The notes below the pieces were generated by a model that searched no databases, had not been told where the DNA came from, and saw only the letters and a list, made by a program, of their open reading frames with translations. From Escherichia coli (GTDB lineage Bacteria > Pseudomonadota > Gammaproteobacteria > Enterobacterales > Enterobacteriaceae): a stretch of 64,000 nucleotides of DNA. Of the stretch, positions 34,143 to 52,238 are shown piece by piece. Within the stretch, counting starts at the first letter, position 1. Each line of letters begins with the position of its first letter. The position numbers and the translations under genes are program-made. The DNA lies in the NCBI GenBank assembly GCA_902500125.1, contig GCA_902500125.1_4132.1. The stretch is one strand, 5' to 3'.

Positions 34143-34202
34143 TTGCAAACTAAGTTTAACGGCGTATAATGTTTTACATCGAGAGCGGGAACACTTCCCG
34201 CT
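34143..34202 (+). promoter_or_regulatory. promoter plus leader hairpin unit
   Basis: TTGCAA-N16-TATAAT then AGCGGGA-loop-TCCCGCT hairpin. Confidence 0.55.
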
Positions 34203-34225
34203 ACATATTACGAGAGATTAAAACG

Positions 34226-34588
34226 ATGGCGACTCAAATCACTAAAATTATTGCTAACCTGGTTAACTTTCGCGACGAGATGAAAGATCTTCCGGCAGAA
34301 ACGGTAAAAATTCACATTTCAGCTTATCGGGAACTTATTGCAATGTTACCGCTTAAGCGTGAACAATACGCCGCGACCGTGATGCTTGATGCGATGATCC
34401 ATAAGATGATCGCCAGTGATTTAACGATGGTTTATCAGTATATGGGCGAAAATTTCGCGGTGTATAGTAAACCAGTACCAGGAATGGAAAGTACAGAAGT
34501 ATTACACGGTTTAAATTTAAAACAAGATGCATGGGATAATATGCCTCGTTTCCTGGTATGGGCTGACAGTGGCAAGATTTACGAATAA
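34226..34588 (+). CDS. hypothetical protein (120 aa)
   Basis: Internal ATG of track ORF 34169..34588; track start lies in -10 box. Confidence 0.55.
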   Translation: MATQITKIIANLVNFRDEMKDLPAETVKIHISAYRELIAMLPLKREQYAATVMLDAMIHKMIASDLTMVYQYMGENFAVYSKPVPGMESTEVLHGLNLKQDAWDNMPRFLVWADSGKIYE

Positions 34589-34602
34589 GTTTTAGAAAGT
34601 AC

Positions 34603-34660
34603 TTGCAAACTAAGTTTAAAAGCGTATAATGTTTTACATCAGGTGGGGAATAGTTCCCCA
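34603..34660 (+). promoter_or_regulatory. promoter plus leader hairpin unit
   Basis: TTGCAA-N16-TATAAT then GGGGAA-TAGT-TCCCC. Confidence 0.55.
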
Positions 34661-34681
34661 CTATATAAGAGGATTAAAAAA

Positions 34682-34921
34682 ATGGCTAAATCAAAAATGT
34701 TCTTAGGTCACAAAAACAAAACTCATTGGAATGTAAGCCTTTGGATTAATAACGATGAGTCATTGTACCGGTTGGCCCAGGACTTTATTAACGATAGCAC
34801 TAATCGCAATGATGCGGCCCGTCATATGATGTTATTTTTAGAACAGACTGGACAAGATAAAACACCGGACGGATTCAAATATAGCACTACTGCGATCCGT
34901 GCGGCTATGGTTGGAATGTAA
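34682..34921 (+). CDS. hypothetical protein, paralog of 36724..36963
   Basis: Internal ATG of track ORF; GHKNKTHWNVSLWINN..TPDGFKYSTTAIRAAMVGM shared. Confidence 0.55.
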   Translation: MAKSKMFLGHKNKTHWNVSLWINNDESLYRLAQDFINDSTNRNDAARHMMLFLEQTGQDKTPDGFKYSTTAIRAAMVGM

Positions 34922-35009
34922 TAGAATAGAATTTATTTAAAGTACTATTGCACGGGGATAGTACTTTATAATAGTGTTTTATTCATACACCAACGATAAG
35001 GGCAACAGC

Positions 35010-35276
35010 ATGAATATTAAGTATTTTGCGACGCGTGAACAAGCTCGGATCGCCGCTCGCCAGGACGGGGCAACGTTTAAAGATATGGGCGTACAATCGG
35101 AACGTGGTAAACGTTGGGCCATTGTAAAGCGTAGTACAGCCAGATCATTACAGTACTGGTTAGCGGCGTTAAAAAGTCCCGATAGTGTATCGCGTCGAGT
35201 GGTAGAAATAAAGCTCGACCGAAAGGGCAACCGCGTGACCGTGTACCGTACTAAAAAGATTGCAGTACTTGAATAA
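35010..35276 (+). CDS. hypothetical protein, paralog of 46942..47337
   Basis: Internal ATG of track ORF; YFATREQARIAAR..DRKGNRVTVY shared. Confidence 0.55.
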   Translation: MNIKYFATREQARIAARQDGATFKDMGVQSERGKRWAIVKRSTARSLQYWLAALKSPDSVSRRVVEIKLDRKGNRVTVYRTKKIAVLE

Positions 35277-35283
35277 AAAGTAC

Positions 35284-35342
35284 TTGCACCGTACTGATAA
35301 AAGCGTATAATGTTTTACATCGAGAGCGGGAACTCTTCCCGC
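35284..35342 (+). promoter_or_regulatory. promoter plus leader hairpin unit
   Basis: TTGCAC-N16-TATAAT then GCGGGAA-CTC-TTCCCGC. Confidence 0.5.
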
Positions 35343-35363
35343 CTATAACCTGGAGTAATGAAA

Positions 35364-35594
35364 ATGACTAATATGTATATGACTGAAGTTAAAACCGTAA
35401 AAGATACTACCACGAATAAAACTACTTACTTACAGCGGATCTGTGGTGTATGGCAACGTATCAGCAAATCAAAGTACTTTAAATTAACATCATATGCAAA
35501 CCGTTCGGATTCATTCAGTACTGAAATAAAAGGTAATAAAGTACACCAATACGGCACTTATTATTATTACAGCCTGGACGCGATTGCAGTATAA
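35364..35594 (+). CDS. hypothetical protein
   Basis: Track ORF 35358..35594; second ATG has better RBS spacing. Confidence 0.5.
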   Translation: MTNMYMTEVKTVKDTTTNKTTYLQRICGVWQRISKSKYFKLTSYANRSDSFSTEIKGNKVHQYGTYYYYSLDAIAV

Positions 35595-35843
35595 GCAGTT
35601 TACAAATCTTTACAATTGCCGGTATTGACTTATTTTGTCAGTACTGGCATAATGTATTCATTGGCAGATAAGCCGTAGCCCATAGGGTGCGGGAGTGTAT
35701 CTATAGAAAAATTAGTTTAGTATAGTTACAATTGTGCACCCGGTGGGTTAGCTGTTGTCATGGGGTATATTATGCCAGTACTTGATAATGCTGTCAATAC
35801 TTTTTTTTAATATTCAGTACTGAAAACTATTTTTAAAAAGTAC

Positions 35844-35989
35844 TTGTAAACTATGTTTAAAGGCGTATAATGTTTTACATCAGGACGGGGAACGAAATAA
35901 GTAACTTCCCGTTAAGTAGCCCAGGAGTAAGGCACACGAAAAACTCCCCTGATAAAATAGTTTGACAATAGAAAGTAAAAGCGTATAAT
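35844..35989 (+). promoter_or_regulatory. dual-promoter module enclosing conserved about 80-nt element (copy 1)
   Basis: TTGTAA..TATAAT, conserved ATG-free 35882-35960 with hairpin, then TTGACA-N16-TATAAT. Confidence 0.45.
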
Positions 35990-36021
35990 ACTTACATCAA
36001 CTACTGAATGAGGGTTACAAA

Positions 36022-36633
36022 ATGAAAACTATCACTACTACTACTTTTGTTATGGCTTTTTCTGAACTGAACGCAGAACAAAAAACGGCGGCTATCGAAC
36101 TGGTTCGGGATCGTGAGCGTTCATGTGAGGATAATTTCTTTGCTGAGGGCGTTATCGAGTACTATAAAGAAACAGTACTACCAGAATACGGCATAGATGA
36201 AGCTGAATTGCAATACAGTGGTTTTTGGTCGCAAGGTGACGGTGCATCAATCAGTACTAACCACGTTGACGCTGAGAAGTTTTTACGCAAGGTTAAGGCG
36301 TTAACGAAATATCGTTCAATCCGTCACCTGTTGAACGAGGATGATTTAGAAATGAGTGTAGAACGTTTCCAATCACGCTACGCACACGAAAACACGGTAG
36401 GCGGTTGCGTTGATACTCGCTACACTGATTTAACTGTAAAACAGGCGGCATTGGCTGAGGATCTGGAAAACTTACTGACTGATGCGATCCGTGAATTATC
36501 TCGTAAGTTGTACCGTGATTTAGAGAATGCATATGAGGATCAATTCACTACTGAAAACATTACTGCACTGATTGAGGGTAACGAATATCAATTCAATGTT
36601 ATTGATGGCGTAGTGGAATCAATCGAATATTAA
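36022..36633 (+). CDS. hypothetical protein (203 aa)
   Basis: Track ORF; GAGGG RBS. Confidence 0.6.
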   Translation: MKTITTTTFVMAFSELNAEQKTAAIELVRDRERSCEDNFFAEGVIEYYKETVLPEYGIDEAELQYSGFWSQGDGASISTNHVDAEKFLRKVKALTKYRSIRHLLNEDDLEMSVERFQSRYAHENTVGGCVDTRYTDLTVKQAALAEDLENLLTDAIRELSRKLYRDLENAYEDQFTTENITALIEGNEYQFNVIDGVVESIEY

Positions 36634-36645
36634 TTTAAAAAGTAC

Positions 36646-36706
36646 TTGTAAACTAAGTTTAAAAGCGTATAATACTTTACATCAAGGCGGGGAGTGGTTC
36701 CCCGCT
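36646..36706 (+). promoter_or_regulatory. promoter plus leader hairpin unit
   Basis: TTGTAA-N16-TATAAT then GCGGGGA-GTGG-TTCCCCGC. Confidence 0.55.
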
Positions 36707-36723
36707 CAAACGAGGATTTAAAA

Positions 36724-36963
36724 ATGGCTAGTACTAAAACTTACAACGGACACAAAAACAAAACTCATTGGAATGTAAGCCTTTGGATTAATAACGGTGA
36801 GTCATTGTATCGGCTTGCTCAAAGTTGCATCGCACAAAGTAGAACTAAAGATATTGCTGCGGAATGTATGTACCGCAGATTAAAAGCCAACGGTACTACT
36901 ACAACGCCGGACGGCTTTAAGTATAGCACTACTGCGATCCGTGCTGCAATGGTTGGAATGTAA
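36724..36963 (+). CDS. hypothetical protein, paralog of 34682..34921
   Basis: Internal ATG of track ORF 36694..36963. Confidence 0.55.
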   Translation: MASTKTYNGHKNKTHWNVSLWINNGESLYRLAQSCIAQSRTKDIAAECMYRRLKANGTTTTPDGFKYSTTAIRAAMVGM

Positions 36964-37020
36964 TATTCAGTACTGAGATAATGGCGGGTAATAGTTCCCG
37001 CCTTTACTGAGGGTTATCTA

Positions 37021-37281
37021 ATGAGTAAAGTAATTAGCTATACAGCACTAAGCAAGTCATTATCTATTAGCCAGTGCACCGATGGTTATTGGCTTTATGA
37101 TGAAACGCGTGGAATGAATTTAGCTATGCGTGCAAAAACTGCTGAGGCGGCGTATCTTGAGGCACTGGAATACTACCAGGAACGTTTAACGGAAGTAGAA
37201 GAAGATTATAAAAGCCTCAAAGCGAAAGTAGATCATTTCGTCGGTCAATTCATCGAGGAAGACGACGATAAACAATACTGA
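37021..37281 (+). CDS. hypothetical protein (86 aa)
   Basis: Track ORF; GAGGG RBS. Confidence 0.55.
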   Translation: MSKVISYTALSKSLSISQCTDGYWLYDETRGMNLAMRAKTAEAAYLEALEYYQERLTEVEEDYKSLKAKVDHFVGQFIEEDDDKQY

Positions 37282-37291
37282 AAAAAAGTAC

Positions 37292-37350
37292 TTGCAATTA
37301 GTTTTCAGTACTGTATAATGGTTTACATCAAAGGGAGAAATGGTTCTCCC
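37292..37350 (+). promoter_or_regulatory. promoter plus leader hairpin unit
   Basis: TTGCAA-N16-TATAAT then GGGAGAA-ATGG-TTCTCCC. Confidence 0.55.
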
Positions 37351-37369
37351 TGGTAATGAGGAAAATAAA

Positions 37370-37591
37370 ATGGCTAATATCACTACTCTTTCCCAACTGG
37401 AAGCACTGGTGAAATCTATGCGGGAACATGCCGACAAAATCGGCGTACAAGATCCAGCCGTTTGCTTCTGCGACGAATTGAATGATGATACCCTGGTAAT
37501 AGCAGAAGTCCAGGACGTTTCTAACTATTCATCGCGTTACACTGGCGGCGTAGCAAATAAAGGCGACTTCTGTTTATACCTTACAAAATAA
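37370..37591 (+). CDS. hypothetical protein
   Basis: Internal ATG of track ORF 37340..37591 after GAGGAAAATAAA. Confidence 0.55.
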   Translation: MANITTLSQLEALVKSMREHADKIGVQDPAVCFCDELNDDTLVIAEVQDVSNYSSRYTGGVANKGDFCLYLTK

Positions 37592-37760
37592 CAACGCGGG
37601 GAGATAATAACTCCCCGTTACTTTTTCAGTACTGAATCATTTAATAGACGGATCTCGGCACCCGGTGGGTTAGTGACTGTTTCGTCTTGATGTAGTAATT
37701 ATGCCAGTACTGGATGCACTTGTCAACAACTATTTTTCAAATACTTTTTATTAAAATACT

Positions 37761-37816
37761 TGCAATTAGTTTTTAAACGCGTATAATGTTTTGCATAGGG
37801 GGAGCGGTTCCCCCTG
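37761..37816 (+). promoter_or_regulatory. promoter plus leader hairpin unit
   Basis: TTGCAA-N16-TATAAT then GGGGGA-GCGG-TTCCCCC. Confidence 0.55.
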
Positions 37817-37835
37817 GTAACTAAGGAATAATAAA

Positions 37836-38072
37836 ATGCTTGAACAAATCAAATCAACGACTTCGAATGTAACGGGAACGGTAGCACACTTTACTAGTGA
37901 TGAATCGCGGGGCGTACCCTATTGTGCTGTACATGTAAACACTGATGGCAACTACTGGTTTACTGTTTACGGATCATATTCCTTTGGACGACCAGGGCAT
38001 CAAAAAATTCTGGATAAAGTACAGCCAACGGGTAAAAATATCACTGCTGAAATGTTTTATAAAAAATCATAA
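37836..38072 (+). CDS. hypothetical protein (78 aa)
   Basis: Track ORF; AAGGA RBS. Confidence 0.55.
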   Translation: MLEQIKSTTSNVTGTVAHFTSDESRGVPYCAVHVNTDGNYWFTVYGSYSFGRPGHQKILDKVQPTGKNITAEMFYKKS

Positions 38073-38077
38073 AGTAC

Positions 38078-38137
38078 TTGATAATAGTTTTTAGTACTGT
38101 ATAATATTTTACATCGCAAGGGGGAGCGGTTCCCCCT
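38078..38137 (+). promoter_or_regulatory. promoter plus leader hairpin unit
   Basis: TTGATA-N16-TATAAT then GGGGGA-GCGG-TTCCCCC. Confidence 0.5.
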
Positions 38138-38156
38138 GGTAACTAAGGATAATCAA

Positions 38157-38456
38157 ATGAAAATTGCAATCATCGCCCTGGCTTTATCTGTTTCCTCTTT
38201 CGCTGTTAATGCGTCATTAGATGTAAGTAGTGAAAAATTCATTCAGTGCACTGTTGCAATGACCGATGAAAGTACTGGCGAGATTGTATTAAAGGATCTG
38301 GAGATTCAGCCGGAAGCATTTAAAAACGGCCCGTTCCATGAAGAAGACGAAAACGGTAGCACGACAATTTATTATGATGCCAGTACTAAACGCGGTTCGG
38401 TCACTGTAATGGATACTGAGAAAGTAACGCATACCGGCGTTATTAATTGCCGTTGA
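38157..38456 (+). CDS. secreted protein with signal peptide
   Basis: Track ORF; N-term MKIAIIALALSVSSFAVNA. Confidence 0.55.
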   Translation: MKIAIIALALSVSSFAVNASLDVSSEKFIQCTVAMTDESTGEIVLKDLEIQPEAFKNGPFHEEDENGSTTIYYDASTKRGSVTVMDTEKVTHTGVINCR

Positions 38457-38477
38457 TAGATACTACGGGGTAACATC

Positions 38478-38790: not shown

Positions 38791-38818
38791 TTGACATTAC
38801 CGCAGAAAAGCGTAGAAT
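38791..38818 (+). promoter_or_regulatory. sigma70-like promoter
   Basis: TTGACA-N16-TAGAAT. Confidence 0.45.
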
Positions 38819-38941
38819 GTATTACATCAAGACGGGGAGCACTAAGTAGACCGCCAGTAAGTCGAACGAAAAACTGGACACGTCGAGAAAACTTTGATAC
38901 ACTAATAAACGTAAACTAAACTTTAATTGAGGATTTATAAA

Positions 38942-39445: not shown

Positions 39446-39471
39446 AGCCCACTTATACAGTGGGCTTTTTT
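39446..39471 (+). terminator. rho-independent terminator
   Basis: AGCCCACT-TATAC-AGTGGGCT plus TTTTTT. Confidence 0.75.
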
Positions 39472-39625: not shown

Positions 39626-39684
39626 TTGCACGATTAAGAGATTAGCGTATAATGTTTTACATCGAGAGGGGGAAACGGTTCTCC
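39626..39684 (+). promoter_or_regulatory. promoter plus leader hairpin unit
   Basis: TTGCAC-N16-TATAAT then GGGGA-AACGGT-TCTCC. Confidence 0.5.
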
Positions 39685-39708
39685 TTCCAAATCAAAGGAA
39701 TCAAAACA

Positions 39709-39936
39709 ATGGCTATCGTAATCGCTTATGTAACTGGTACTACTGGCACTTCTTCTACTGTTGCTGTAATTACCAACAAGAAAGGTGCGGAATTACATTC
39801 TGCAATGGATACCTGGGCGGTAAATGAGTTCGGTCAGTGGGCAAGTGTAGCATATGTTGAAACCTATCAAGTGCCAACCATTAGCTTAACGGATCTCGGT
39901 GTAGATCGTATCCTTTGCCTGGATGAATTAAATTAA
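39709..39936 (+). CDS. hypothetical protein (75 aa)
   Basis: Internal ATG of track ORF 39652..39936. Confidence 0.55.
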   Translation: MAIVIAYVTGTTGTSSTVAVITNKKGAELHSAMDTWAVNEFGQWASVAYVETYQVPTISLTDLGVDRILCLDELN

Positions 39937-39944
39937 AAAAGTAC

Positions 39945-40005
39945 TTGCAAAGTAAGTTGGATAAAGTATAATACATTACATCAAGGGGAGAAAATGGTTC
40001 TCCCC
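39945..40005 (+). promoter_or_regulatory. promoter plus leader hairpin unit
   Basis: TTGCAA-N16-TATAAT then GGGGAGA-AAATGG-TTCTCCCC. Confidence 0.55.
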
Positions 40006-40023
40006 ACTAAGAGGAAACTAAAA

Positions 40024-40167
40024 ATGAAAACTTGTCAATGTGGTAAAAAATCTATTACTGGTTTGAAACGGGGCGTTGCTCTTTGTCAGTATCACTATAA
40101 CGCTCAGGTATGGGGTAAAGAGTGGGCCGACCAGGTGGAAGCAGTAAAGAAAGCAAAAAGTAAGTAA
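40024..40167 (+). CDS. small Cys/His-containing protein (47 aa)
   Basis: ATG after AAGAGGAAA RBS; MKTCQCGKK..CQYHY; below track cutoff. Confidence 0.45.
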   Translation: MKTCQCGKKSITGLKRGVALCQYHYNAQVWGKEWADQVEAVKKAKSK

Positions 40168-40186
40168 AATTATTATCACAGTACTA

Positions 40187-40215
40187 TTGACATAGATTGA
40201 TAGTACTGGCATAAT
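40187..40215 (+). promoter_or_regulatory. sigma70-like promoter
   Basis: TTGACA-N17-CATAAT flanked by AGTACT. Confidence 0.5.
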
Positions 40216-40480: not shown

Positions 40481-40509
40481 TTGACATAGTTTGATAGTAC
40501 TGGCATAAT
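40481..40509 (+). promoter_or_regulatory. sigma70-like promoter (duplicate of 40187 unit)
   Basis: Same about 70-nt promoter/leader repeated. Confidence 0.5.
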
Positions 40510-41566: not shown

Positions 41567-41776
41567 ATGCTTACTGTACAGGATAAGATCGACATCTTAA
41601 AGGTTAATATGTATGTGATTGATGCCGTACCTGGTAAAGTATTTGCATACGATGACACTACTGTAAGCGATTTCTACTATAGCCAGGCCGTGGGGGATCT
41701 TTCTGTACAGTCGGTTATTGAAAACGTAGTTAATGCAGCGTATGAGCATTTACTTTCAAATAGTACTTGCAATTAG
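41567..41776 (+). CDS. hypothetical protein (69 aa)
   Basis: Track ORF. Confidence 0.5.
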   Translation: MLTVQDKIDILKVNMYVIDAVPGKVFAYDDTTVSDFYYSQAVGDLSVQSVIENVVNAAYEHLLSNSTCN

Positions 41777-41826
41777 TTTTTAAACGCGTATAATGTTTTA
41801 CATGAAGGGGAGAAATGATTCTCCCC
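41766..41826 (+). promoter_or_regulatory. promoter plus leader hairpin unit
   Basis: TTGCAA-N17-TATAAT then GGGGAGA-AATGAT-TCTCCCC. Confidence 0.55.
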
Positions 41827-41995: not shown

Positions 41996-42055
41996 TTGCA
42001 ATTAGTTTTTAGTACTGTATAATAGTTTACATGAAGGGGAGAAATGATTCTCCCC
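41996..42055 (+). promoter_or_regulatory. promoter plus leader hairpin unit
   Basis: TTGCAA-N16-TATAAT then GGGGAGA-AATGAT-TCTCCCC. Confidence 0.55.
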
Positions 42056-42462: not shown

Positions 42463-42545
42463 GGGTTGACTCCGGTCAGTCCCTTTGCTATTATATATAC
42501 ATACCAGCGATACACTGGCGGCCCATAGGGTGCACAAATGTATCT
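42463..42545 (+). promoter_or_regulatory. extended terminator-promoter module with CCCATAGGGTGC motif
   Basis: GGGTTGAC-TCCG-GTCAGTCCC hairpin, TTGACT/TATTAT, then GCCCATAGGGTGCACAAATGTATC. Confidence 0.55.
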
Positions 42546-42588: not shown

Positions 42589-42647
42589 TTGCAAACTATC
42601 TCAATAAGCGTATAATGTTTTACATCGAAAGGGGAAACGGTTTCCCC
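42589..42647 (+). promoter_or_regulatory. promoter plus leader hairpin unit
   Basis: TTGCAA-N16-TATAAT then GGGGAAA-CGG-TTTCCCC. Confidence 0.55.
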
Positions 42648-42667
42648 TGGTAATAAGGAAACAAATC

Positions 42668-43009
42668 ATGACTATCTCAATTGCTCAATCTAACTTTGAA
42701 AATGAAATCATCGCCCAGGCACTGCGTTTAAATGATGGTCGGGCCGAAATTAATTACGGTTTCAATTCAGGCGGTTGTGAAAAATATCAGTACTTTGTAA
42801 CGGCTGATGGCGGTGTCCTGGGTATCAATACAGTTATTGTAAACATCCAAAAAATTAATTTCAATGATCCAGACGATAGCCAGTTTTACATCACGGGCGT
42901 AGACGTGAACTATGAGGATGACTCACTAACTGATGACTACACTGGTGAAACGTTAGAAAGTGCATACTGTGAAGATGATTATCAGTCCGGTCCAGAAGAT
43001 TTCGAATAA
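42668..43009 (+). CDS. hypothetical protein (113 aa)
   Basis: Track ORF; AAGGAAACAAA RBS. Confidence 0.55.
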   Translation: MTISIAQSNFENEIIAQALRLNDGRAEINYGFNSGGCEKYQYFVTADGGVLGINTVIVNIQKINFNDPDDSQFYITGVDVNYEDDSLTDDYTGETLESAYCEDDYQSGPEDFE

Positions 43010-43023
43010 TATAAAAAAATAGT

Positions 43024-43083
43024 TTGACAATAGATTATAGTACTGTATAATAGTTTACATCAAGGGGAGAAAAACTTCTCCCC
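43024..43083 (+). promoter_or_regulatory. promoter plus leader hairpin unit
   Basis: TTGACA-N16-TATAAT then GGGGAGAA-AAAC-TTCTCCCC. Confidence 0.55.
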
Positions 43084-43105
43084 ACTAACAGAGAGAGAAA
43101 ACAAA

Positions 43106-43318
43106 ATGGCTAATATCTGCACTGTACTGAAAAATGCAAAACAAGTTTTATTTTCTGATCACGATCATTTAAACAAGGATATTACTGGCGTTCGGAATAT
43201 CAAAGATGTAAAAAGTGTTATGGGTATCTATTGCAATATGAAACGTGTTGGAACGTTCGGCGACAAAGTACTATACCAGGCAGGGGATTACAATTTTACA
43301 CTGACTATCATTAACTAA
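43106..43318 (+). CDS. hypothetical protein (70 aa)
   Basis: Track ORF. Confidence 0.55.
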   Translation: MANICTVLKNAKQVLFSDHDHLNKDITGVRNIKDVKSVMGIYCNMKRVGTFGDKVLYQAGDYNFTLTIIN

Positions 43319-43337: not shown

Positions 43338-43365
43338 TTGACATAGTTTGATAGTACTGTATAAT
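43338..43365 (+). promoter_or_regulatory. sigma70-like promoter
   Basis: TTGACA-N16-TATAAT. Confidence 0.5.
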
Positions 43366-43856: not shown

Positions 43857-44185
43857 TCTATTGACAATATCATCCAGTACTGGCATAATACTTACATCAA
43901 GACGAGAACGTCACTAACCCATAGGGTGCACAAATGTAACTATATAATATCGATCAATAAATGATCAAAAAAGTACTGGATCAATTTAACATAAGGAGTA
44001 TAATTCTGATCAATTCTTGATCAAAGGCAATATACGCAGTTGAATTTATATAGACATTACAAAGGCGTTACTATCCGTGGTAATGCTGGTGGATATGTAG
44101 TATCATATGGTTTGAATAAGATTAGCACTAGTAGTATTATTGTAGCATTACAGTACTATAGTATTTTTATAATGAGGTTAAAATA

Positions 44186-44450: not shown

Positions 44451-44478
44451 TTGACAGTACTGAAAGATAGTGTATAAT
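44451..44478 (+). promoter_or_regulatory. sigma70-like promoter
   Basis: TTGACA-N16-TATAAT. Confidence 0.5.
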
Positions 44479-44867: not shown

Positions 44868-44924
44868 TTGCATTTAGTTTTCAGTACTGTTATAGTACTT
44901 GCATCAAGGGGAAACATCTTCCCC
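44868..44924 (+). promoter_or_regulatory. promoter plus leader hairpin unit
   Basis: TTGCAT-N17-TATAGT then GGGGAA-ACATC-TTCCCC. Confidence 0.5.
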
Positions 44925-44942
44925 TACTAAGAGGAAATAAAA

Positions 44943-45131: not shown

Positions 45132-45161
45132 AAAAGTACTGGATAATAGATTATAGTACTG

Positions 45162-45199
45162 TATAATAGTTTACATGAAGGGGAGAAATGATTCTCCCC
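45162..45199 (+). promoter_or_regulatory. promoter -10 plus leader hairpin
   Basis: TATAAT then GGGGAGA-AATGAT-TCTCCCC. Confidence 0.5.
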
Positions 45200-45436: not shown

Positions 45437-45494
45437 TTGCACTGTACTGAATAAAGTGTATAATGTTTTATATCGGAAGGGGAATAGTTCCCCT
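45437..45494 (+). promoter_or_regulatory. promoter plus leader hairpin unit
   Basis: TTGCAC-N16-TATAAT then GGGGAA-TAGT-TCCCC. Confidence 0.55.
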
Positions 45495-45515: not shown

Positions 45516-45689
45516 ATGGTCCAGGTAGAATTAACAGTACTGAAAGATCTGTTTTATCGGATTGGTACTACTGGCGAATATCCGAAGGGTGATAATGCAA
45601 AACTTTACGTATCACTCGACTTATGGCAACGCGAACAATTAGCAACGGCCTGGCGTAAAGGCAAAGCAGATAGCGAGGTGAAAGCATGA
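45516..45689 (+). CDS. hypothetical protein (57 aa)
   Basis: Internal ATG of track ORF 45414..45689 after AAGAGGAAAGTATA. Confidence 0.5.
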   Translation: MVQVELTVLKDLFYRIGTTGEYPKGDNAKLYVSLDLWQREQLATAWRKGKADSEVKA

Positions 45690-45835: not shown

Positions 45836-45849
45836 AAATAATTGAAAAA

Positions 45850-45930
45850 GGGATTGACTCCGGTCAGTCCCTTTGCTATTATATACGCATAGAAACAAAT
45901 TAGCCCACCGGGTGCATAAATGTATCTATT
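45850..45930 (+). promoter_or_regulatory. extended terminator-promoter module with CCCACCGGGTGC motif
   Basis: Same module as 42463, 48857 and 51610. Confidence 0.55.
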
Positions 45931-45982: not shown

Positions 45983-46126
45983 TTGCATTGTAATTAGAAT
46001 CAAGTATAATGTTTTACATCAGGACGGGGAACGAAACAAGTAACCCCGTTAAGTAGTCCAGGAGTAAGACATACGAAAAACTCCCCTGATAAAATAGTTT
46101 GACAATAGAAAGTAAACGAGTATAAT
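45983..46126 (+). promoter_or_regulatory. dual-promoter module enclosing conserved about 80-nt element (copy 2)
   Basis: Near-identical to 35844..35989, including element 46021-46098. Confidence 0.45.
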
Positions 46127-46159: not shown

Positions 46160-46435
46160 ATGCGGATTCTACTGACAGCTAACGAAATCGAACAAGTACT
46201 GACTACTAACCTGGAACAATGGAAACGTGATGCAGATATCCAGGCGGTTCAATGGCTTAACGATAAGTTAACGCCGGATGACTTAAGCAAGATTGTAGAT
46301 CCTCAATTCTACGAAGATATTCACGACACGGCTTTAAGCGTCGAGGATGTACTTGATAAGCATTACATTAATACCGATTTACAGGTTTACGGGCGTAAAA
46401 ACTTTATCACTATTCACGACATTTACAATACTTAA
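46160..46435 (+). CDS. hypothetical protein (91 aa)
   Basis: Track ORF. Confidence 0.55.
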   Translation: MRILLTANEIEQVLTTNLEQWKRDADIQAVQWLNDKLTPDDLSKIVDPQFYEDIHDTALSVEDVLDKHYINTDLQVYGRKNFITIHDIYNT

Positions 46436-46438: not shown

Positions 46439-46500
46439 TTGACAAAGTATCTTAGTACTGTATAATAGTTTACATCAAGGCGGGGAAATGGTTCCCCTCC
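46439..46500 (+). promoter_or_regulatory. promoter plus leader hairpin unit
   Basis: TTGACA-N16-TATAAT then GGGGAA-ATGG-TTCCCC. Confidence 0.55.
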
Positions 46501-47359: not shown

Positions 47360-47384
47360 GGCGGGATCAGTTCCCGCCTTTTTT
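47360..47384 (+). terminator. rho-independent terminator
   Basis: GGCGGGA-TCAG-TTCCCGCC plus TTTTTT. Confidence 0.7.
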
Positions 47385-47653: not shown

Positions 47654-47678
47654 CAGTACTCAAATGTTTTAGTATTAT
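47650..47678 (+). promoter_or_regulatory. sigma70-like promoter
   Basis: TTGACA-N17-TATTAT. Confidence 0.45.
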
Positions 47679-47706
47679 GTACACATACCAACACGGGAGA
47701 AACAAA

Positions 47707-47925
47707 ATGAAATTATCTAAAATCGAAAAGAAAACTATTGATGAAGCAGTTAAGCACGGTTATACCTTTCGTAATGATTCACATTTTACCAATTTTCAAC
47801 AGGGGTATCGTACTATTAAAAAACTAATTGACAAAGGTTTATTAGTTGAAGTCAATAATGGGAACGGTATCGAGTATCAGCCAACCCAAGACGCATTATC
47901 TTTAAAGAAATATAATATTATCTAA
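47707..47925 (+). CDS. hypothetical protein (72 aa)
   Basis: Internal ATG of track ORF 47650..47925 after GGGAGAAACAAA. Confidence 0.5.
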   Translation: MKLSKIEKKTIDEAVKHGYTFRNDSHFTNFQQGYRTIKKLIDKGLLVEVNNGNGIEYQPTQDALSLKKYNII

Positions 47926-47954
47926 TTGACAGTACTCAAATGTTTTAGTACTAT
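47926..47954 (+). promoter_or_regulatory. sigma70-like promoter
   Basis: TTGACA-N17-TACTAT. Confidence 0.45.
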
Positions 47955-47983
47955 ATGTACATACCAACACGGGGAAAAACAAA

Positions 47984-48226
47984 ATGATTACTTTAGAAAA
48001 ACGTATCAAAGAAACTACATCGCTGGTGGAATTGTTAACAGTACTCAAATGTAAAACAACACCATTCAGCACGCCGGACTTTATTAATATGGTTGATGTT
48101 AATGGTCGCTATCGTATCACGGTCGAACAAGGAGCGGCGAAAGTATTCAGTACTAAAAACACGAAGGAAGTGATCCACGCCGTTAATGTTAAAAAAGTAG
48201 TTGCCATTGATAGTAAAGTACTGTAA
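47984..48226 (+). CDS. hypothetical protein (80 aa)
   Basis: Track ORF. Confidence 0.5.
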   Translation: MITLEKRIKETTSLVELLTVLKCKTTPFSTPDFINMVDVNGRYRITVEQGAAKVFSTKNTKEVIHAVNVKKVVAIDSKVL

Positions 48227-48257
48227 TATAGTTTCATTAACTCAAGGAGAACATGCA

Positions 48258-48842
48258 ATGCGTAATTATACTAAATTCATCCGTACACTGTCAGAAATGG
48301 AAACCAACAAAGAGATCCTTTCAGCTTGTCGGTTAGCTGGCCTGGAGATCATCGGTGCTGGTTCTTCCCGTATAGTTTTCGCTTTAAATGATCGGTTAGT
48401 GATTAAGGTCGCGAATTGTGATGCGGGTGTAGAACAAAATGAAACTGAATGTAAGGTATGGAATTTTTTAGACTATGACCGCCCTCAGTTGAAACAGTAC
48501 TTTGCAAAGGTGCATATGCATTTATGCGATCCTGATAATATGTTTATCGTTATGGATCGGTTGAGTACTGCAAGCAAAGGTAGTGTGAAGCACGTAAACG
48601 CGTGCAATGAATTAAAGTACAATATTAAACGTAATGCAATCGAACGCCAGCACCGCTTTGCTGATGCACTACAACACGTCGATGATACATTATCAACACT
48701 AACGATAAGAGATATCAGAAAACAGAATATCGGCCAGGATCGTAATGGCCTTATTAAAGTACTTGATTACGGTTTAACCTGCAATATCTGGAATCAGTAC
48801 TATAAAAAGCGTGATGTGGCAGCAAGTAAGGTAACACGATAA
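48258..48842 (+). CDS. protein-kinase-like protein
   Basis: IGAGSSRIVFALNDRLVIKVA and IRDIRKQNIGQDRNGLIKVLDYG motifs; AAGGAGA RBS. Confidence 0.5.
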   Translation: MRNYTKFIRTLSEMETNKEILSACRLAGLEIIGAGSSRIVFALNDRLVIKVANCDAGVEQNETECKVWNFLDYDRPQLKQYFAKVHMHLCDPDNMFIVMDRLSTASKGSVKHVNACNELKYNIKRNAIERQHRFADALQHVDDTLSTLTIRDIRKQNIGQDRNGLIKVLDYGLTCNIWNQYYKKRDVAASKVTR

Positions 48843-48856
48843 AAAAGATTAAAAAA

Positions 48857-48930
48857 GGGATTGACTCCGGTCAGTCCCTTTGCTATTATATATCCATTGA
48901 GAGATAACTCACTGACCCATAGGGTGCGGA
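48857..48930 (+). promoter_or_regulatory. extended terminator-promoter module with CCCATAGGGTGC motif
   Basis: Same module as 42463. Confidence 0.55.
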
Positions 48931-48983
48931 AGTGTATCTATTATATAAGTATTCAGTACTGAAAACTATTTTTTAAAAAGTAC

Positions 48984-49043
48984 TTGCATTGTACTTAGAA
49001 TCAAGTATAATGTTTTATATCGAGAGGGGGAAATGGTTCTCCC
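48984..49043 (+). promoter_or_regulatory. promoter plus leader hairpin unit
   Basis: TTGCAT-N16-TATAAT then GGGGGAA-ATGG-TTCTCCC. Confidence 0.55.
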
Positions 49044-49065
49044 TGGTATATTAAGGAATAAAATC

Positions 49066-49287
49066 ATGACTACAATGACTTGCATTTACGCTTCCAATCG
49101 TCTGAATGATGCGGCCTTTAATGTTGATTCAGAATATCAATGTTATCGGGATGAAAATAAAAAAGTTTTTGTAGTTGATAATAATGGTTTCCATATTGAA
49201 TTACAATCCGGCTTCACTGGTGTTGATGGTAAATCAGTATGGGGCGTACAGGATGATAAAGGTACATATCATTTTAAACGTAATTAA
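49066..49287 (+). CDS. hypothetical protein (73 aa)
   Basis: Internal ATG of track ORF 49033..49287. Confidence 0.55.
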   Translation: MTTMTCIYASNRLNDAAFNVDSEYQCYRDENKKVFVVDNNGFHIELQSGFTGVDGKSVWGVQDDKGTYHFKRN

Positions 49288-49291
49288 GTAT

Positions 49292-49350
49292 TTGACAAAG
49301 TATCTTAGTACTGTATAATAGTTTACATCAAGGGGAGAATAGTTCTCCCC
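49292..49350 (+). promoter_or_regulatory. promoter plus leader hairpin unit
   Basis: TTGACA-N16-TATAAT then GGGGAGA-ATAG-TTCTCCCC. Confidence 0.55.
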
Positions 49351-49371
49351 GATACTAAAAGGAATAAAATC

Positions 49372-49776
49372 ATGACTACTACTAATCTTGCTCGGAATAT
49401 CGCCAACGATAAAAATCATGCTGCAATGGTCGCTGGTTACATTGAAGCTATGCAATTCAGTACTGTACATAATGATAACGGCGATTACCTGGAAGATTAT
49501 GAGTTATCTGATGAAGCACGTCAAGCGGCGGTGATTGCATGTTCTCGCTTCATTGAGAAACACGGTAATGATCTGGAAGTAGTTCGCGGTATGTTTATTG
49601 ATTACGGTTATGAGCAAGCTGGTCATGATCTGTTCCTTACCCGCGAAGGTCACGGAACTGGTTTTTGGGATCGTGGTTTAGGTCACTATGGCGATGTATT
49701 CACGAAGTACTGCGAAGAAATCAACGTTTGCGATCCCTATGTAGGCGATGATAACTTAATCTATATGGGCGAATAA
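49372..49776 (+). CDS. hypothetical protein (134 aa)
   Basis: Track ORF. Confidence 0.6.
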   Translation: MTTTNLARNIANDKNHAAMVAGYIEAMQFSTVHNDNGDYLEDYELSDEARQAAVIACSRFIEKHGNDLEVVRGMFIDYGYEQAGHDLFLTREGHGTGFWDRGLGHYGDVFTKYCEEINVCDPYVGDDNLIYMGE

Positions 49777-49782
49777 AAGTAT

Positions 49783-49841
49783 TTGACAAAGTATATCAGT
49801 ACTGTATAATAGTTTACATCAAGGGGAGAATAGTTCTCCCC
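49783..49841 (+). promoter_or_regulatory. promoter plus leader hairpin unit
   Basis: Near-duplicate of 49292 unit. Confidence 0.55.
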
Positions 49842-49863
49842 AATACTAAAAGGAAACAAAATT

Positions 49864-50136
49864 ATGTCCAGCTACTCCGCTACTATGATCATTAAAGATA
49901 TGAACGGTAATCCTACTTCTGCTGGTGGATCATTTGGAAATATTAACTTAGATGGGCGGTTATCCATGCAATCAGCCATCGATGCAGCGAAAGAAGTTTT
50001 TAAGAATGAATGTACTGTTAGTAAGCTGGATTATATGGGTTTCGCTATCGAGAAAACTACTCGTTTTGTGAACTACAAAAATCCACTGATGATTGATACT
50101 AACCTGAAAGCTAACGAAGTGGGGTACTTATTATGA
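49864..50136 (+). CDS. hypothetical protein (90 aa)
   Basis: Track ORF. Confidence 0.55.
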   Translation: MSSYSATMIIKDMNGNPTSAGGSFGNINLDGRLSMQSAIDAAKEVFKNECTVSKLDYMGFAIEKTTRFVNYKNPLMIDTNLKANEVGYLL

Positions 50137-50324
50137 CAGTAGAAGAAGTAAAAAAAGTACTGGCAGTACTACGATATCATAATCATTGCAAGGTGAAGAA
50201 TGATCCTGATTATCTTGATTCATCCCTGGAGGAAGACACCTTGAACGCTATAAGCCATATGCAGACATTAGCAAAGCGTATGACTGAAAAGAACATGCCG
50301 GACTATATCGGAAATAAAATTTAA
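50133..50324 (+). CDS. hypothetical protein (63 aa)
   Basis: Track ORF; ATGA overlap. Confidence 0.5.
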   Translation: MTVEEVKKVLAVLRYHNHCKVKNDPDYLDSSLEEDTLNAISHMQTLAKRMTEKNMPDYIGNKI

Positions 50325-50331
50325 AAAGTAC

Positions 50332-50391
50332 TTGCATTGTAGTTAGATTAACGTATAATGTTTTATATCGAGAGGGGGAAATGGTTTCCCC
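50332..50391 (+). promoter_or_regulatory. promoter plus leader hairpin unit
   Basis: TTGCAT-N16-TATAAT then GGGGGAA-ATGG-TTTCCCCT. Confidence 0.55.
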
Positions 50392-50411
50392 TCAAGTCCA
50401 GGAGATACACA

Positions 50412-50675
50412 ATGAACACTATCGAAATCACTATCAATGCACACGTATACGACAACGTAGTACTGCAAACTACTATGACCGCTAATGATACCAGTACTTT
50501 GCGGAATACTGTTATTAGTGCCGTATGTGCTGCAATCGGTGATGTATCCCTGGAAAATGCAGAACATATCAACAACGGTTTCACTATGTGCAAGCGTGAT
50601 AACGCAAAACATATCATCGTGGAAGGTTACGGCGGTGTAGAATTTAATGTTTATATGAAAAAAGTACTTGCATAA
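50412..50675 (+). CDS. hypothetical protein (87 aa)
   Basis: Internal ATG of track ORF 50358..50675. Confidence 0.55.
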   Translation: MNTIEITINAHVYDNVVLQTTMTANDTSTLRNTVISAVCAAIGDVSLENAEHINNGFTMCKRDNAKHIIVEGYGGVEFNVYMKKVLA

Positions 50676-50724
50676 TAACTAAAACAAAGTATAATGTTTT
50701 GCATAGGGGGAGATATCCTCCCCC
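50668..50724 (+). promoter_or_regulatory. promoter plus leader hairpin unit
   Basis: TTGCAT-N16-TATAAT then GGGGGAG-ATAT-CCTCCCCC. Confidence 0.55.
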
Positions 50725-50742
50725 ACTAAAAGGAGTAATAAA

Positions 50743-50967
50743 ATGGCTAACTTTGATGAACTGATGCGGGAAGTAGCTAACCTGGCAGAAGAGAAGAAAT
50801 CATTCGATTCTATCTATAACACCGCTCACCGTGATTCAGTACTGGCATGTAACCAGGATCAAAAAGATGAACTAATCGCCACCTATCATGAAGCATGGAA
50901 GTACTACCGACAATGGGAGAAAGAAGAAAGTGAGTCTACCATTGACGGCCTCAATAATCTAATCTAA
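50743..50967 (+). CDS. hypothetical protein (74 aa)
   Basis: Track ORF. Confidence 0.55.
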   Translation: MANFDELMREVANLAEEKKSFDSIYNTAHRDSVLACNQDQKDELIATYHEAWKYYRQWEKEESESTIDGLNNLI

Positions 50968-50986
50968 AAGTTTTATTTCAGTACTA

Positions 50987-51017
50987 TTGACATAGCTTGA
51001 TAGTACTGATGTAATAA
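50987..51017 (+). promoter_or_regulatory. sigma70-like promoter
   Basis: TTGACA then weak -10; same architecture as 40187. Confidence 0.4.
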
Positions 51018-51043
51018 CTTTACTAACTACAAGGGGAAACATA

Positions 51044-51301
51044 ATGGATCAGTTCACACAATATCGGGTAAATCCTCAAGCTATGGCCTACGTAGAAGAC
51101 CATAAAACGTTACCAGTACTGCAACCAGTTAAAGGCCATATCTATCGTGCAATGTCGTGGTGTGCGGCCCAGGATGGCTATAAAACCGTAGCCGTTGGTA
51201 TGTACTGCGGTAATGGTGAATGGTTTGATCCAAATAATCCGGTATCCATTGACAGTACTGAAAAAATGAAATGGGCCGACTACATCGAAGATATTTCATA
51301 A
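51044..51301 (+). CDS. hypothetical protein (85 aa)
   Basis: Track ORF. Confidence 0.55.
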   Translation: MDQFTQYRVNPQAMAYVEDHKTLPVLQPVKGHIYRAMSWCAAQDGYKTVAVGMYCGNGEWFDPNNPVSIDSTEKMKWADYIEDIS

Positions 51302-51307
51302 AAACTA

Positions 51308-51368
51308 TTTGACAGTACTAACCAGTAATGTATAATGTTTTACATAGAGCGGGGGAATAGTTCTCCCG
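51308..51368 (+). promoter_or_regulatory. promoter plus leader hairpin unit
   Basis: TTGACA-N16-TATAAT then GCGGGGGAA-TAG-TTCTCCCGC. Confidence 0.55.
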
Positions 51369-51391
51369 CCAATAGTTTGGAGTAAAACATT

Positions 51392-51592
51392 ATGTCTATC
51401 GCTATCGCCCTGGTTGAAGTACTGAAAGAAGCTAAAGCCAACCAGATCGACGTAAAGATCCAGGAACTACAAAACGGCTTAATCGGCTGTACTTGTACCG
51501 CTGGTGGAGCGGCAGACTATCGAGAACACGAATCACTCGAATCACTGGTTCGGTATCTTACCATGATCGTTGATGATTGGAGAATCATCTAA
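51392..51592 (+). CDS. hypothetical protein (66 aa)
   Basis: Track ORF. Confidence 0.55.
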   Translation: MSIAIALVEVLKEAKANQIDVKIQELQNGLIGCTCTAGGAADYREHESLESLVRYLTMIVDDWRII

Positions 51593-51609
51593 CAAAAAAG
51601 AATAAAAAA

Positions 51610-51690
51610 GGGATTGACTCCGGTCAGTCCCTTTGCTATTATATACGCATAGACAAAAACTAGCCCACAGGGTGCATAGGTGTATCCAAA
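51610..51690 (+). promoter_or_regulatory. extended terminator-promoter module with CCCACAGGGTGC motif
   Basis: Same module as 42463. Confidence 0.55.
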
Positions 51691-51836
51691 ATATATAGTT
51701 AATAACGGTGAGTAACTATCTGCTGGTGGAACTAAAACTATTAATAAAAAAGTATTGACAAAGTATATCAGTACTGCAATAATGTATCTCGTAGGGCGGC
51801 AATGGTGCGACGGCCCACAAAGTTAGGAGATTCAAA

Positions 51837-52169
51837 ATGACTACTTCAATCGCTATCGTTAAAGCTTTCATCCGTACTAATGTTTCCTCTGTATTCATCG
51901 ACGGCCTCGACCGTAACGTAGAATACTCAATCATTATCGCACAAACGGCAAACGGTTCTCGGTACATCCTGAATGATAGTGAAGCAAATCACTACTACTT
52001 CACTAAAGCCACTGGCTTTAAACGCATCGATGCTGATGTAGTATACGCTAAGATGAATAAGCTGGTAGACAAGATTAACGCGAAAGGTACTATCGATTTA
52101 CAGTACTGGACCGAAACCGATCCAGAATATGGATCTCACCGCTACCTGAATCCAGGTATTAAAATGTAA
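51837..52169 (+). CDS. hypothetical protein (110 aa)
   Basis: Track ORF; TAGGAGA RBS. Confidence 0.6.
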   Translation: MTTSIAIVKAFIRTNVSSVFIDGLDRNVEYSIIIAQTANGSRYILNDSEANHYYFTKATGFKRIDADVVYAKMNKLVDKINAKGTIDLQYWTETDPEYGSHRYLNPGIKM

Positions 52170-52176
52170 AAAGTAC

Positions 52177-52238
52177 TTGCATAGTACTTAGAATCAAGTA
52201 TAATGTTTTACATAGAGAGGGGGAAATGGTTCTCCCTC
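52177..52238 (+). promoter_or_regulatory. promoter plus leader hairpin unit
   Basis: TTGCAT-N16-TATAAT then GGGGGAA-ATGG-TTCTCCC. Confidence 0.55.

Follow-up and report, generated by a model that had tools for sequence, protein, structure and literature searches.

Promoter-hairpin cassettes resembling promoter-early stem-loops in the presumed terminal repeat of an Asteriusvirus-type jumbo coliphage

Promoter-early stem-loops (PeSLs) have been described for the T4-like phages RB49/phi1, PST/T4 and nt-1/KVP40 (Arbiol et al., 2010, PMC2839356; Comeau et al., 2014, PMC4122927). They flank ORFans in hyperplastic regions, where they mediate insertion, deletion and replacement of genes and form mini-circles, and their stem-loop terminates transcription (PMC2839356; PMC4122927). 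From Escherichia coli itself it is known that secondary structures at the 5′ end stabilise mRNAs, given that both RppH and RNase E require a 5′ end that is single-stranded (PMC3997798). Here we describe a cassette in which a promoter, a leader hairpin and a ribosome-binding site (RBS) follow one another at set distances, and which recurs between positions 34143 and 52238 of a 64,000-nucleotide stretch (the window) of contig GCA_902500125.1_4132.1 from the E. coli assembly GCA_902500125.1. In open-access text we found no description of such cassettes or leader hairpins for Asteriusvirus (including phAPEC6), Rak2-like, rV5-like, PVP-SE1 or phAPEC8-like phages; the paper on phage CBB notes only RpoD-like promoters with UP elements (PMC5259590).

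One family of predicted promoters dominates this part of the window. The pattern TATAATGTTTTACATC, with three mismatches or fewer, matches the window 33 times, where 3.45 matches would be expected (0/100 shuffles), and 27 of these 33 stand on the + strand between 34165 and 52199. Together with a degenerate copy at 44890 they form a set of 28, each built from AAAAAGTAC, a TTGCAA or TTGACA box, a 16-nt spacer, TATAAT and GTTTTACATC. A leader hairpin accompanies 24 of the 28 promoters, with a stem of 6-9 bp (mostly 7-9), a loop of 3-5 nt and a folding energy of -7.9 to -14.5 kcal/mol; its 5′ arm is rich in purines (mostly G/A) and its 3′ arm in pyrimidines (mostly C/T). The stem starts 8-15 nt 3′ of the -10 hexamer, with a mode of 12 (13 units), and ends 17-25 nt before the ATG. 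The Shine-Dalgarno sequence (SD) lies in between, and the stretch from SD to ATG is 79% unpaired in prediction. Following general rules for start sites, we infer the start site to be the A of ACATC (the eighth position past the -10 box, with C at -1) or else position 6; all 24 hairpins are located 3′ of the -10 box and past this predicted start, and the hairpin is predicted to begin at about +5 of the transcript. A first-pass annotation of this DNA had already proposed consensus promoters followed by a hairpin of fixed position, and this architecture holds for the + strand units counted above, down to the limits that it gave, from the first -35 box at 34143 to the end of the last hairpin at 52238. 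Its description of the units as monocistronic is true only in part. About half of the 49 genes have a cassette of their own, but some units hold two or three genes, and with only about nine terminator-like sites read-through is likely.

The strongest evidence for a structure comes from the way in which the stems vary. We compared the hairpins in a loop-anchored alignment (made in Python) and in an alignment based on a covariance model (CM), and set aside MAFFT alignments of the units, which go out of structural register as loop length varies. In the loop-anchored alignment of the 24 hairpins, positions 1-8 of the stem are 97% paired, against 86.5% when the 3′ arms are permuted (0/2000); this background is high since almost all bases are purines in one arm and pyrimidines in the other. 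Position p4 holds G-C in 12 hairpins, A-T in eight, G·T in four and A·C in none, and pairing is likewise kept while identity varies at p6 (G-C/C-G), p7 (G-C/C-G/T-A/A-T) and p8 (A-T/G-C/C-G). In the CM-based alignment, which holds 69 matches (36 distinct) from seven phages, both sides have changed in 7 of 9 pairs, compared with 2.6 in shuffles (0/500), and the covariation score is 0.34, compared with 0.16 in shuffles and 0.07-0.11 in slid registers. Moreover, within the 64-kb window a covariance model built from ten hairpins gives significant matches only between 34 and 52 kb and only on the + strand. Both the compensatory changes reported by the first-pass annotation and its preference for a structural element over chance are thus borne out. 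The stems are also polar: 13 G·T stand against two A·C in the window and 15 against two when the wider set is counted, and the sense strand folds better than the antisense strand in 11 units and worse in three. The G·T excess points to a hairpin in the sense-strand RNA, since a DNA palindrome or cruciform would treat both mismatches alike, whereas RNA (or any single strand with the sense polarity) accepts G·U only, and we consider it very probable that the stem is under selection at the RNA level.

Close relatives show such changes one at a time. Among copies before the same gene in phages JP4 or vB_Ec-M-J, the hairpin of the promoter with its -10 box at 37782 differs by a G and a C that were lost as a pair, and the third phage has a G5/C4 intermediate. 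A C·T mismatch at 46461 is A-T in JP4, an A-T pair at 37314 is G·T in JP4, and the stem at 41789 is shortened to 6 bp in JP4. Larger replacements occur as well: at 50354 a patch of ~30 bp that corresponds exactly to the hairpin is replaced in JP4 by the variant of 51331 (unit 23), while promoter and SD/gene are conserved, and in JP4 the orthologue of the gene at 45516 lacks a cassette entirely. Loops vary freely between orthologues (ctc/cac, atgg/acgg, atga/atagta). Within the window the loop is ATGG in six units, TAG in five, ATGA in three, CGG in three and something else in the other seven, so that the loop, which had been described as largely kept, is conserved only in part.

Ten of the 24 loops contain an ATG (ATGG/ATGA), for example those of the hairpins at 37332, 39985, 42036, 49025 and 52217, and some of these are in frame with the gene (MVLP...). 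TATAATG also holds an ATG. Naive gene calling starts at the loop ATG, and the PHROG profiles 33522 and 13850 seem to include extra N-terminal residues from it. We considered the loop ATG as a start codon or the start of a leader peptide and rejected it, as the ACGG, TAG and CGG variants have no ATG there and the SD-like arm is base-paired. Starts at the loop ATG are probably an annotation artefact.

The cassettes have a well-defined setting. Both the 34-42 kb part and the whole of 32.1-53.6 kb match, piecewise and at 92-96% identity, the ~350-kb genomes of Asteriusvirus jumbo coliphages such as phAPEC6, PBECO4, 121Q, G17, JP4 and vB_Ec-M-J. In vB_Ec-M-J the corresponding DNA is part of a direct terminal repeat that is annotated as 21,525 bp long and whose first base aligns with position 32398 of the window, and for the related phage fEgEco12 a terminal repeat of ~21 kb has been confirmed by experiment (PMC13070987). 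From these alignments we conclude that the phage is a jumbo coliphage of the Asteriusvirus type and that the cassette block is the early-gene part of its direct terminal repeat of ~21 kb. The block is the coding part of the repeat and holds 49 small genes in one orientation, encoding 47-203 aa. Most of the 20 block genes that were scanned for domains have no assigned function; three of them matched a DksA/TraR zinc finger, a GNAT acetyltransferase and, weakly and below threshold, a kinase-like domain. Such a gene make-up is what one commonly sees in an early region for host takeover, such as has been proposed for the related phage CBB (PMC5259590).

Within this repeat the cassettes coincide with mosaicism. 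No phage record covers at least 80% of the 21.5-kb block, the best one reaching 75% in 15 pieces. The internal ends of homology blocks fall within cassette footprints (-45 to +75 of the -10 box) in 9 of 23 cases, while the footprints make up 18.6% of the region (binomial p = 0.018, with breakpoints from two relatives only, L001 and L002). The remaining ends are mostly at other promoter types or in intergenic DNA. In one case the gene at 49372-49776 is placed between twin cassettes (49292-49350 and 49783-49841), and the gene together with one cassette is missing in JP4. Small genes appear to be swapped at cassettes, and this would apply between phage families as well as within them. A 94-nt cassette query found 52 phage records, which include Asteriusvirus, coliphages of 140-150 kb and distant jumbo phages of Klebsiella, Salmonella and Erwinia. 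Gene and cassette are shared at ~85-95% nucleotide identity with 140-150 kb phages of the Vequintavirinae and Stephanstirmvirinae, which argues for recent horizontal exchange of cassette plus gene between unrelated phages of the same host. The shared modules are at 34682-34918, 39709-40164 and 42668-43315 in the window, at 3500-5200 in phage A73 (Vequintavirinae) and at ~7000 in phage nepoznato (Phapecoctavirus, Stephanstirmvirinae). A73 has three cassettes with genes ~90% identical to those of the window.

The other lineages also show what stays constant when the stem sequence does not. The early promoters of A73's own consist of TTGACA, 17 nt and TAAATT, TAAGAT or TAAACT, followed by hairpins with unrelated stems (GCCGCA/TGCGGC, GGGGCA/TTGCCCC, GGCGGC/GCCGCC, GGGGCG/CGCCCC and GGGCGGCA/TGCCGCTC) that start 10-13 nt after the -10 box where measured. 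Nepoznato has the same arrangement of promoter and hairpin, again with unrelated stems. In the Klebsiella jumbo phage fENko-Kae01 a hairpin is found at ~5 of ~37 promoter-like sites of the terminal repeat, 10-12 nt after the -10 box, and the Erwinia phage Hallingskeid carries copies such as GGGGCGGA atgg TTCGCCCC. A position that is fixed across lineages while the stem sequence is free suggests that the hairpin has a structural role linked to the place where the cassette's own transcript begins. The comparison also shows that the hairpin is optional for early promoters.

How can these observations be brought together? We favour an explanation that, taken whole, we hold tentatively and at somewhat less than an even chance: a portable cassette of the PeSL kind, in which the stem-loop is placed in the leader and forms a structure close to the 5′ end of the mRNA. 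Such a cassette would consist of an A-tract (UP-like), a sigma70 promoter, the start region GTTTTACATC, the purine/pyrimidine stem-loop and SD plus ATG, in this order. It would serve as a portable module from promoter to RBS and, at the same time, as a block of homology at which small early genes may be inserted, deleted, replaced or exchanged, even between phage families. We are confident about the identity of the cassette. The function of its hairpin as a 5′ stabiliser or insulator is a possibility that we would put at about one chance in three. The hairpin would then act on the cassette's own mRNA, protecting or standardising the 5′ end and insulating the RBS from upstream sequence. Three points speak for such a function: the stabilising effect of 5′ structures on E. 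coli mRNAs (PMC3997798), the largely unpaired stretch from SD to ATG, and the presence of the hairpin in units into which no transcription runs from upstream.

Several points weigh against this explanation. The predicted unpaired 5′ tail has a median of 6 nt if transcription starts at position 6 and of 5 nt if it starts at position 8 (a few units have 0-3 nt), and modelled in this way the tail is probably too long to block end-binding by RppH and RNase E. Scanning RNase E readily bypasses a simple orthogonal stem-loop (PMC9943677), and for this reason we dropped the idea that the hairpin blocks such scanning. The proposal of a 5′ stabiliser, which the first-pass annotation had listed among its options, is weakened on both counts and is still the leading guess. 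Additionally, other early promoters in the block have no hairpin (40187, 40481, 43338, 44451), as is the case for most promoter-like sites in the fENko-Kae01 terminal repeat. Because the copies are paralogues with gene conversion among them, covariation counts overstate the number of independent events, and the CM alignment is fitted to its own structure. Finally, the PeSL stem-loop of RB49 lies inside the promoter and was shown to act as a terminator (PMC2839356), and a unified role in upstream transcripts is possible.

This last point leads to an alternative that we consider unlikely, namely that the hairpin is a PeSL-type attenuator, terminator or 3′-end barrier acting on transcripts from upstream units, with an incidental position in the leader. 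It would damp cumulative transcription or halt 3′ exonucleases. Indeed, the stem-loop of the RB49/phi1 PeSL cut lacZ about as much as rrnB T1 did and was read as a terminator or attenuator (PMC2839356). Read-through must accumulate here, as the + strand has only ~9 terminator-like sites for 49 co-oriented genes (33677, 37596, 38715, 39446, 47360 and the composites at 42463, 45847, 48854 and 51607), and the same type of stem is terminator-like at 37596 and 47360, where a T-run follows. However, a T-run follows none of the 24 leader hairpins, which is why none of them is among the 23 terminator-like sites that a scan of 33.5-53.4 kb returned, and a terminator at +5 to +25 would also halt the cassette's own transcripts. 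The hairpin is also kept where nothing transcribed from upstream would need stopping: the unit that opens the repeat (34143) has it, and so do units that directly follow strong terminators (39626, 42589, 48984). Its distance from the -10 box (12±1 nt) does not change between this phage and three other lineages, but is free in RB49. It is also conceivable, but quite unlikely in our judgement, that the apex of the hairpin is a shared 5′ tag of an early-mRNA regulon, recognised by a dedicated phage or host RNA-binding factor that acts in trans on ~25 early mRNAs in shut-off, protection or translational control. An apex of the form A-[AYGG]-U or A-[UAG]-U recurs on different stems in several lineages (GGCAATGGTGCC, GGAATGGTCC, GAAATGGTTC), and all copies are at one distance from the RBS. 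Against this, the loops range from 3 to 5 nt and differ even among close orthologues, A73 has many others (atcg, actt, acaag, gaaa), and cassette transfer alone could account for those that are shared; neither a candidate protein nor a matching Rfam family was found. If such a tag existed, the factor could use it, for example, to shield early mRNAs from the phage-stimulated RNase E decay of host mRNA, or to destroy or silence them at the early-to-middle switch, and tagged cassettes would circulate among large coliphages of three or more unrelated lineages (Asteriusvirus with related jumbo phages, Vequintavirinae, Stephanstirmvirinae).

Alternatively, the hairpin may have no function of its own and be a terminator relic or a recombination hot spot at the DNA level, homogenised by gene conversion. 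The swapped ~30-bp patch at 50354, the clustering of block ends at cassettes, the mapping of the RB49 mini-circle crossover to the loop (PMC2839356) and the unpaired half-motifs ATAGTTCCCC in the head of the repeat would all suit such an origin. We nonetheless regard it as improbable: pairing survives point changes, paired indels and full replacement of the stem, G·T is tolerated where A·C is not (a bias that a role at the DNA level does not predict), and the hairpin keeps its position even in lineages whose stems are unrelated. An inverted repeat at about +5 to +30 could also be the operator of a dimeric repressor that shuts early promoters, another option of the first-pass annotation. Its position is typical of roadblock operators, and its inner core (GGNGAA...TTCNCC) varies little within this phage. 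Complementarity, however, is held where identity varies (p4), which is not required of an operator; G·T exceeds A·C, half-site spacing ranges from 3 to 5 nt, and related cassettes carry unrelated stems at this position, all of which makes an operator highly improbable. Since RNase III needs roughly two helical turns of double-stranded RNA, stems of 6-9 bp are far too short for an RNase III site, and we rejected this candidate. Searches for known RNA families added nothing: Rfam gave no hits at gathering score in the 64 kb and, at E≤1 in 32.0-53.5 kb, two sub-threshold chance hits, neither on a leader hairpin; ARAGORN found nothing relevant in the window.

The individual units, all on the + strand, are given here with span, -10 box, hairpin (arms in capitals or tokens, loop in lower case) and ATG, in this order. 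Unit 1, 34143..34202, is the first promoter of the repeat and has no gene upstream (-35 box at 34143; -10 box 34165-34170; hairpin 34184-34202, AGCGGGAA cac TTCCCGCT; ATG 34226). It is followed by unit 2, 34603..34662 (34625; 34642-34662, GGTGGGGAA tag TTCCCCACT; 34682), unit 3, 35284..35342 (35306; 35326-35342, GCGGGAA ctc TTCCCGC; 35364), unit 4, 36646..36706 (36668; 36686-36706, GGCGGGGAG tgg TTCCCCGCT; 36724), unit 5, 37292..37351 (37314; 37332-37351, AGGGAGAA atgg TTCTCCCT; 37370) and unit 6, 37760..37816 (37782; 37796-37816, TAGGGGGAG cgg TTCCCCCTG; 37836). Unit 7, 38078..38137, precedes two genes (38100; 38119-38137, AGGGGGAG cgg TTCCCCCT; 38157), and unit 8, 39626..39687, which comes after the terminator at 39446, has two G·U pairs in its stem (39648; 39666-39687, GAGGGGGAA acgg TTCTCCTTC; 39709). 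The arms GGGGAGAA and TTCTCCCC are found in unit 9, 39945..40005 (39967; 39985-40005, loop aatgg; 40024), unit 10, 41767..41826 (41789; 41807-41826, atga; 41846), unit 11, 41996..42055 (42018; 42036-42055, atga; 42074), unit 13, 43024..43083 (43046; 43064-43083, aaac; 43106), unit 15, 45140..45199 (45162; 45180-45199, atga; 45217) and the twin units 19, 49292..49350 (49314; 49332-49350, tag; 49372), and 20, 49783..49841 (49805; 49823-49841, tag; 49864).

Between these lie unit 12, 42589..42648 (42611; 42630-42648, AGGGGAAA cgg TTTCCCCT; 42668), unit 14, 44868..44925, with the degenerate -10 box TTATAG (44890; 44907-44925, AGGGGAA acatc TTCCCCT; 44943), unit 16, 45437..45494 (45459; 45478-45494, AGGGGAA tag TTCCCCT; 45516), unit 17, 46439..46497, the stem of which extends past a C·T mismatch (46461; 46482-46497, GGGGAA atgg TTCCCC; 46523), and unit 18, 48984..49044, with one G·U pair (49006; 49025-49044, AGGGGGAA atgg TTCTCCCT; 49066). 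The series ends with unit 21, 50332..50393 (50354; 50372-50393, GAGGGGGAA atgg TTTCCCCTC; 50412), unit 22, 50668..50724 (50690; 50706-50724, GGGGGAG atatc CTCCCCC; 50743), unit 23, 51309..51369 (51331; 51349-51369, GCGGGGGAA tag TTCTCCCGC; 51392) and unit 24, 52177..52238 (52199; 52217-52238, GAGGGGGAA atgg TTCTCCCTC; 52259).

Some copies depart from this plan, again on the + strand. Two have a long leader: at 35844..35989 the -10 box (35866) is followed by a structured RNA of ~75 nt (35878-35953), a second consensus promoter (35962-35989) and an ATG at 36022, and at 45983..46126 the -10 box at 46005 is followed by the structured RNA at 46017-46090, the second promoter at 46099-46126 and an ATG at 46160. 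The ~75-nt RNA has a closing helix AUCAGG/CCUGAU and two inner hairpins, folds with z = -2.4 and -3.6 in the two copies, is ~90% conserved in the Vequintavirinae phage A73, and could be a small RNA or a long leader. A degenerate long leader at 38791..38925 (-10 box TAGAAT at 38813, leader copy 38825-38925, ATG 38942), likewise with a second promoter, has no significant fold. One consensus promoter of the family, 44451..44478, is without any hairpin (-10 box 44473, ATG 44508, the GNAT acetyltransferase). A hairpin of the leader type, GGCGGG taatagtt CCCGCC, stands as an orphan at 36983..37002, right after a weak -10 box GATAAT and before an ATG at 37021. Of the two terminator-like sites with this kind of stem, the one at 37596..37618 is a leader-type hairpin with a T-run and the one at 47360..47378 reads GGCGGGA tcagt TCCCGCC and then TTTTTT.

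The block contains at least three promoter classes, and the leader hairpin is tied to only one of them. A second class, TATTGACATAG...TAGTACTGGCATAAT, has an extended -10 TG and is found at 40187-40215, 40481-40509, 43338-43365 and 43861-43889, and on the - strand at 35797-35769 and 37726-37698. Before genes it has an unstructured leader without a hairpin, and it is also located upstream of some of the CCCAYNGGGTGC elements described below. Homology-block breakpoints are found at promoters of this class as well. GTTTTAC was considered as the -35 box of a second promoter, and on inspection of the sequence no -10 box was found at a workable spacing. The element CCCAYNGGGTGC occurs in nine copies, six on the + strand (35679, 42522, 43918, 45904, 48916, 51664) and three on the - strand (37669, 35747, 33524), each ~27-33 nt 3′ of its own sigma70-like -10 box. 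It is also found 3′ of promoters in the terminal repeat of fENko-Kae01. The copies look like a family of short transcribed RNAs, to judge from this placement, and have no Rfam match. A composite element, AAAGGGATTGACTCCGGTCAGTCCCTTTGCTATTATAT, would drive CCCAYNGGGTGC elements. It carries its -35 box within a 12-bp stem, followed by T-rich sequence and the -10 box, and stands on the + strand at 42463-42494, 45847-45882, 48854-48889 and 51607-51642, with TTGACT as the -35 box inside the stem; similar composites are found at ~3306, 7307 and 14037. By their layout these composite terminator/-35 elements have the classic geometry of the RB49-type PeSL.

The head of the repeat (32400-34140) is non-coding and rich in repeats, with a 24-nt tandem array at 33206-33300 and a 53-nt repeat present 2.6 times at 33949-34084. 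The right-arm motif ATAGTTCCCC occurs there without a left arm, in the 53-nt repeat and around it. With one mismatch allowed there are six copies in 32865-34099, all on the + strand and one of them within a hairpin at 33373. The unpaired copies may represent half-cassettes that have degraded, or else some unrelated signal close to the end of the genome. Directly 5′ of the terminal repeat, at 30400-32110, ~8 short paralogous genes of ~180-200 bp each stand in tandem; their products begin with M(H/N/Y)KE(Y/F)Y... and end with ...LL(I/L)(Y/F)R(Y/K)*. The palindrome AGTACT occurs 278 times in the whole window, against 21.6 expected from base composition and 77 for the runner-up among 6-mer palindromes. 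It is densest in 28000-52000, takes the form CAGTACTG 65 times, and is found in promoter spacers, coding and non-coding DNA alike.

Rak2-like and Asteriusvirus jumbo phages are in development for therapy while their transcription is essentially undescribed, and a genome paper of 2026 on one of them does not mention a promoter. Our results provide a map of ~28 early promoters and their leaders in the terminal repeat, which is injected first. They go beyond the first-pass annotation in placing the cassettes in the early region of a terminal repeat, in treating them as mobile, recombining units of the PeSL kind and in restricting the hairpin to a single promoter class. The data suggest that modular cassettes resembling PeSLs also occur outside the T4-like phages. 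With the small genes that accompany them, the cassettes are candidate vehicles for the exchange of host-takeover genes between unrelated phage families. From a practical point of view, a cassette of ~100 bp that comprises promoter, hairpin and RBS is a ready-made and, by prediction, strong expression part.

Several known systems share single features with the cassette. The leader of T7 gene 10 has a 5′ stem-loop, GGGAGACCACAACGGTTTCCC, and this phi10 leader and unit 12 have AACGGTTTCCC in common. The boxB hairpins of the lambda and P22 nut sites and the put sites of HK022 are promoter-proximal RNA hairpins that recruit factors. Like the leader hairpins, they lie just 3′ of early promoters and combine a variable stem with a partly conserved loop, but the cassettes have no boxA, no GNRA-like pentaloop and no two-hairpin put arrangement, and their ~24 copies stand before genes rather than operons. 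Intrinsic terminators have a similar GC-rich stem of 7-9 bp and a short loop, whereas our hairpins have no U-tract and are located directly 3′ of a promoter. The 5′ stem-loop stabilisers of E. coli ompA and papA (PMC3997798) resemble the leader hairpin in being stable, GC-rich and near the mRNA 5′ end, with an accessible RBS downstream. They are placed at the 5′ end or a few nt from it, while here a tail of ~5-6 nt is predicted.

The closest likeness is to the PeSL. In both systems an upstream AT-rich tract and a near-consensus sigma70 promoter are combined with a stem-loop of G-run and C-run, G·T pairs included, and with SD plus ATG, and the UP/-35 part is AAAAAGTTGTTGACA in RB49 and AAAAAGTACTTGCAA here. 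Both are intergenic, before small and mostly ORFan genes of a hyperplastic region, and in both cases indels, replacements and inter-cassette exchange between close relatives are bounded by cassettes. The differences concern sequence, host phage and, above all, position. Our 94-nt cassette query has no detectable sequence homology to the RB49 cassettes, and the array described here is in the terminal repeat of a jumbo Rak2-like phage instead of a T4-like one. The stem-loop of a PeSL may lie upstream of the promoter, inside it or just 3′ of it, but always before the transcription start; it is inside the promoter in RB49, which we inspected directly, and upstream of it in PST and nt-1, in both cases outside its own transcript, whereas here all 24 hairpins are past the predicted start, in what would be the leader. 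They keep a fixed distance from the -10 box and have no T-run, while the RB49 stem-loop was shown to terminate. On this comparison the cassette is best described not as a plain member of the PeSL group but as a putative leader-positioned variant of it.

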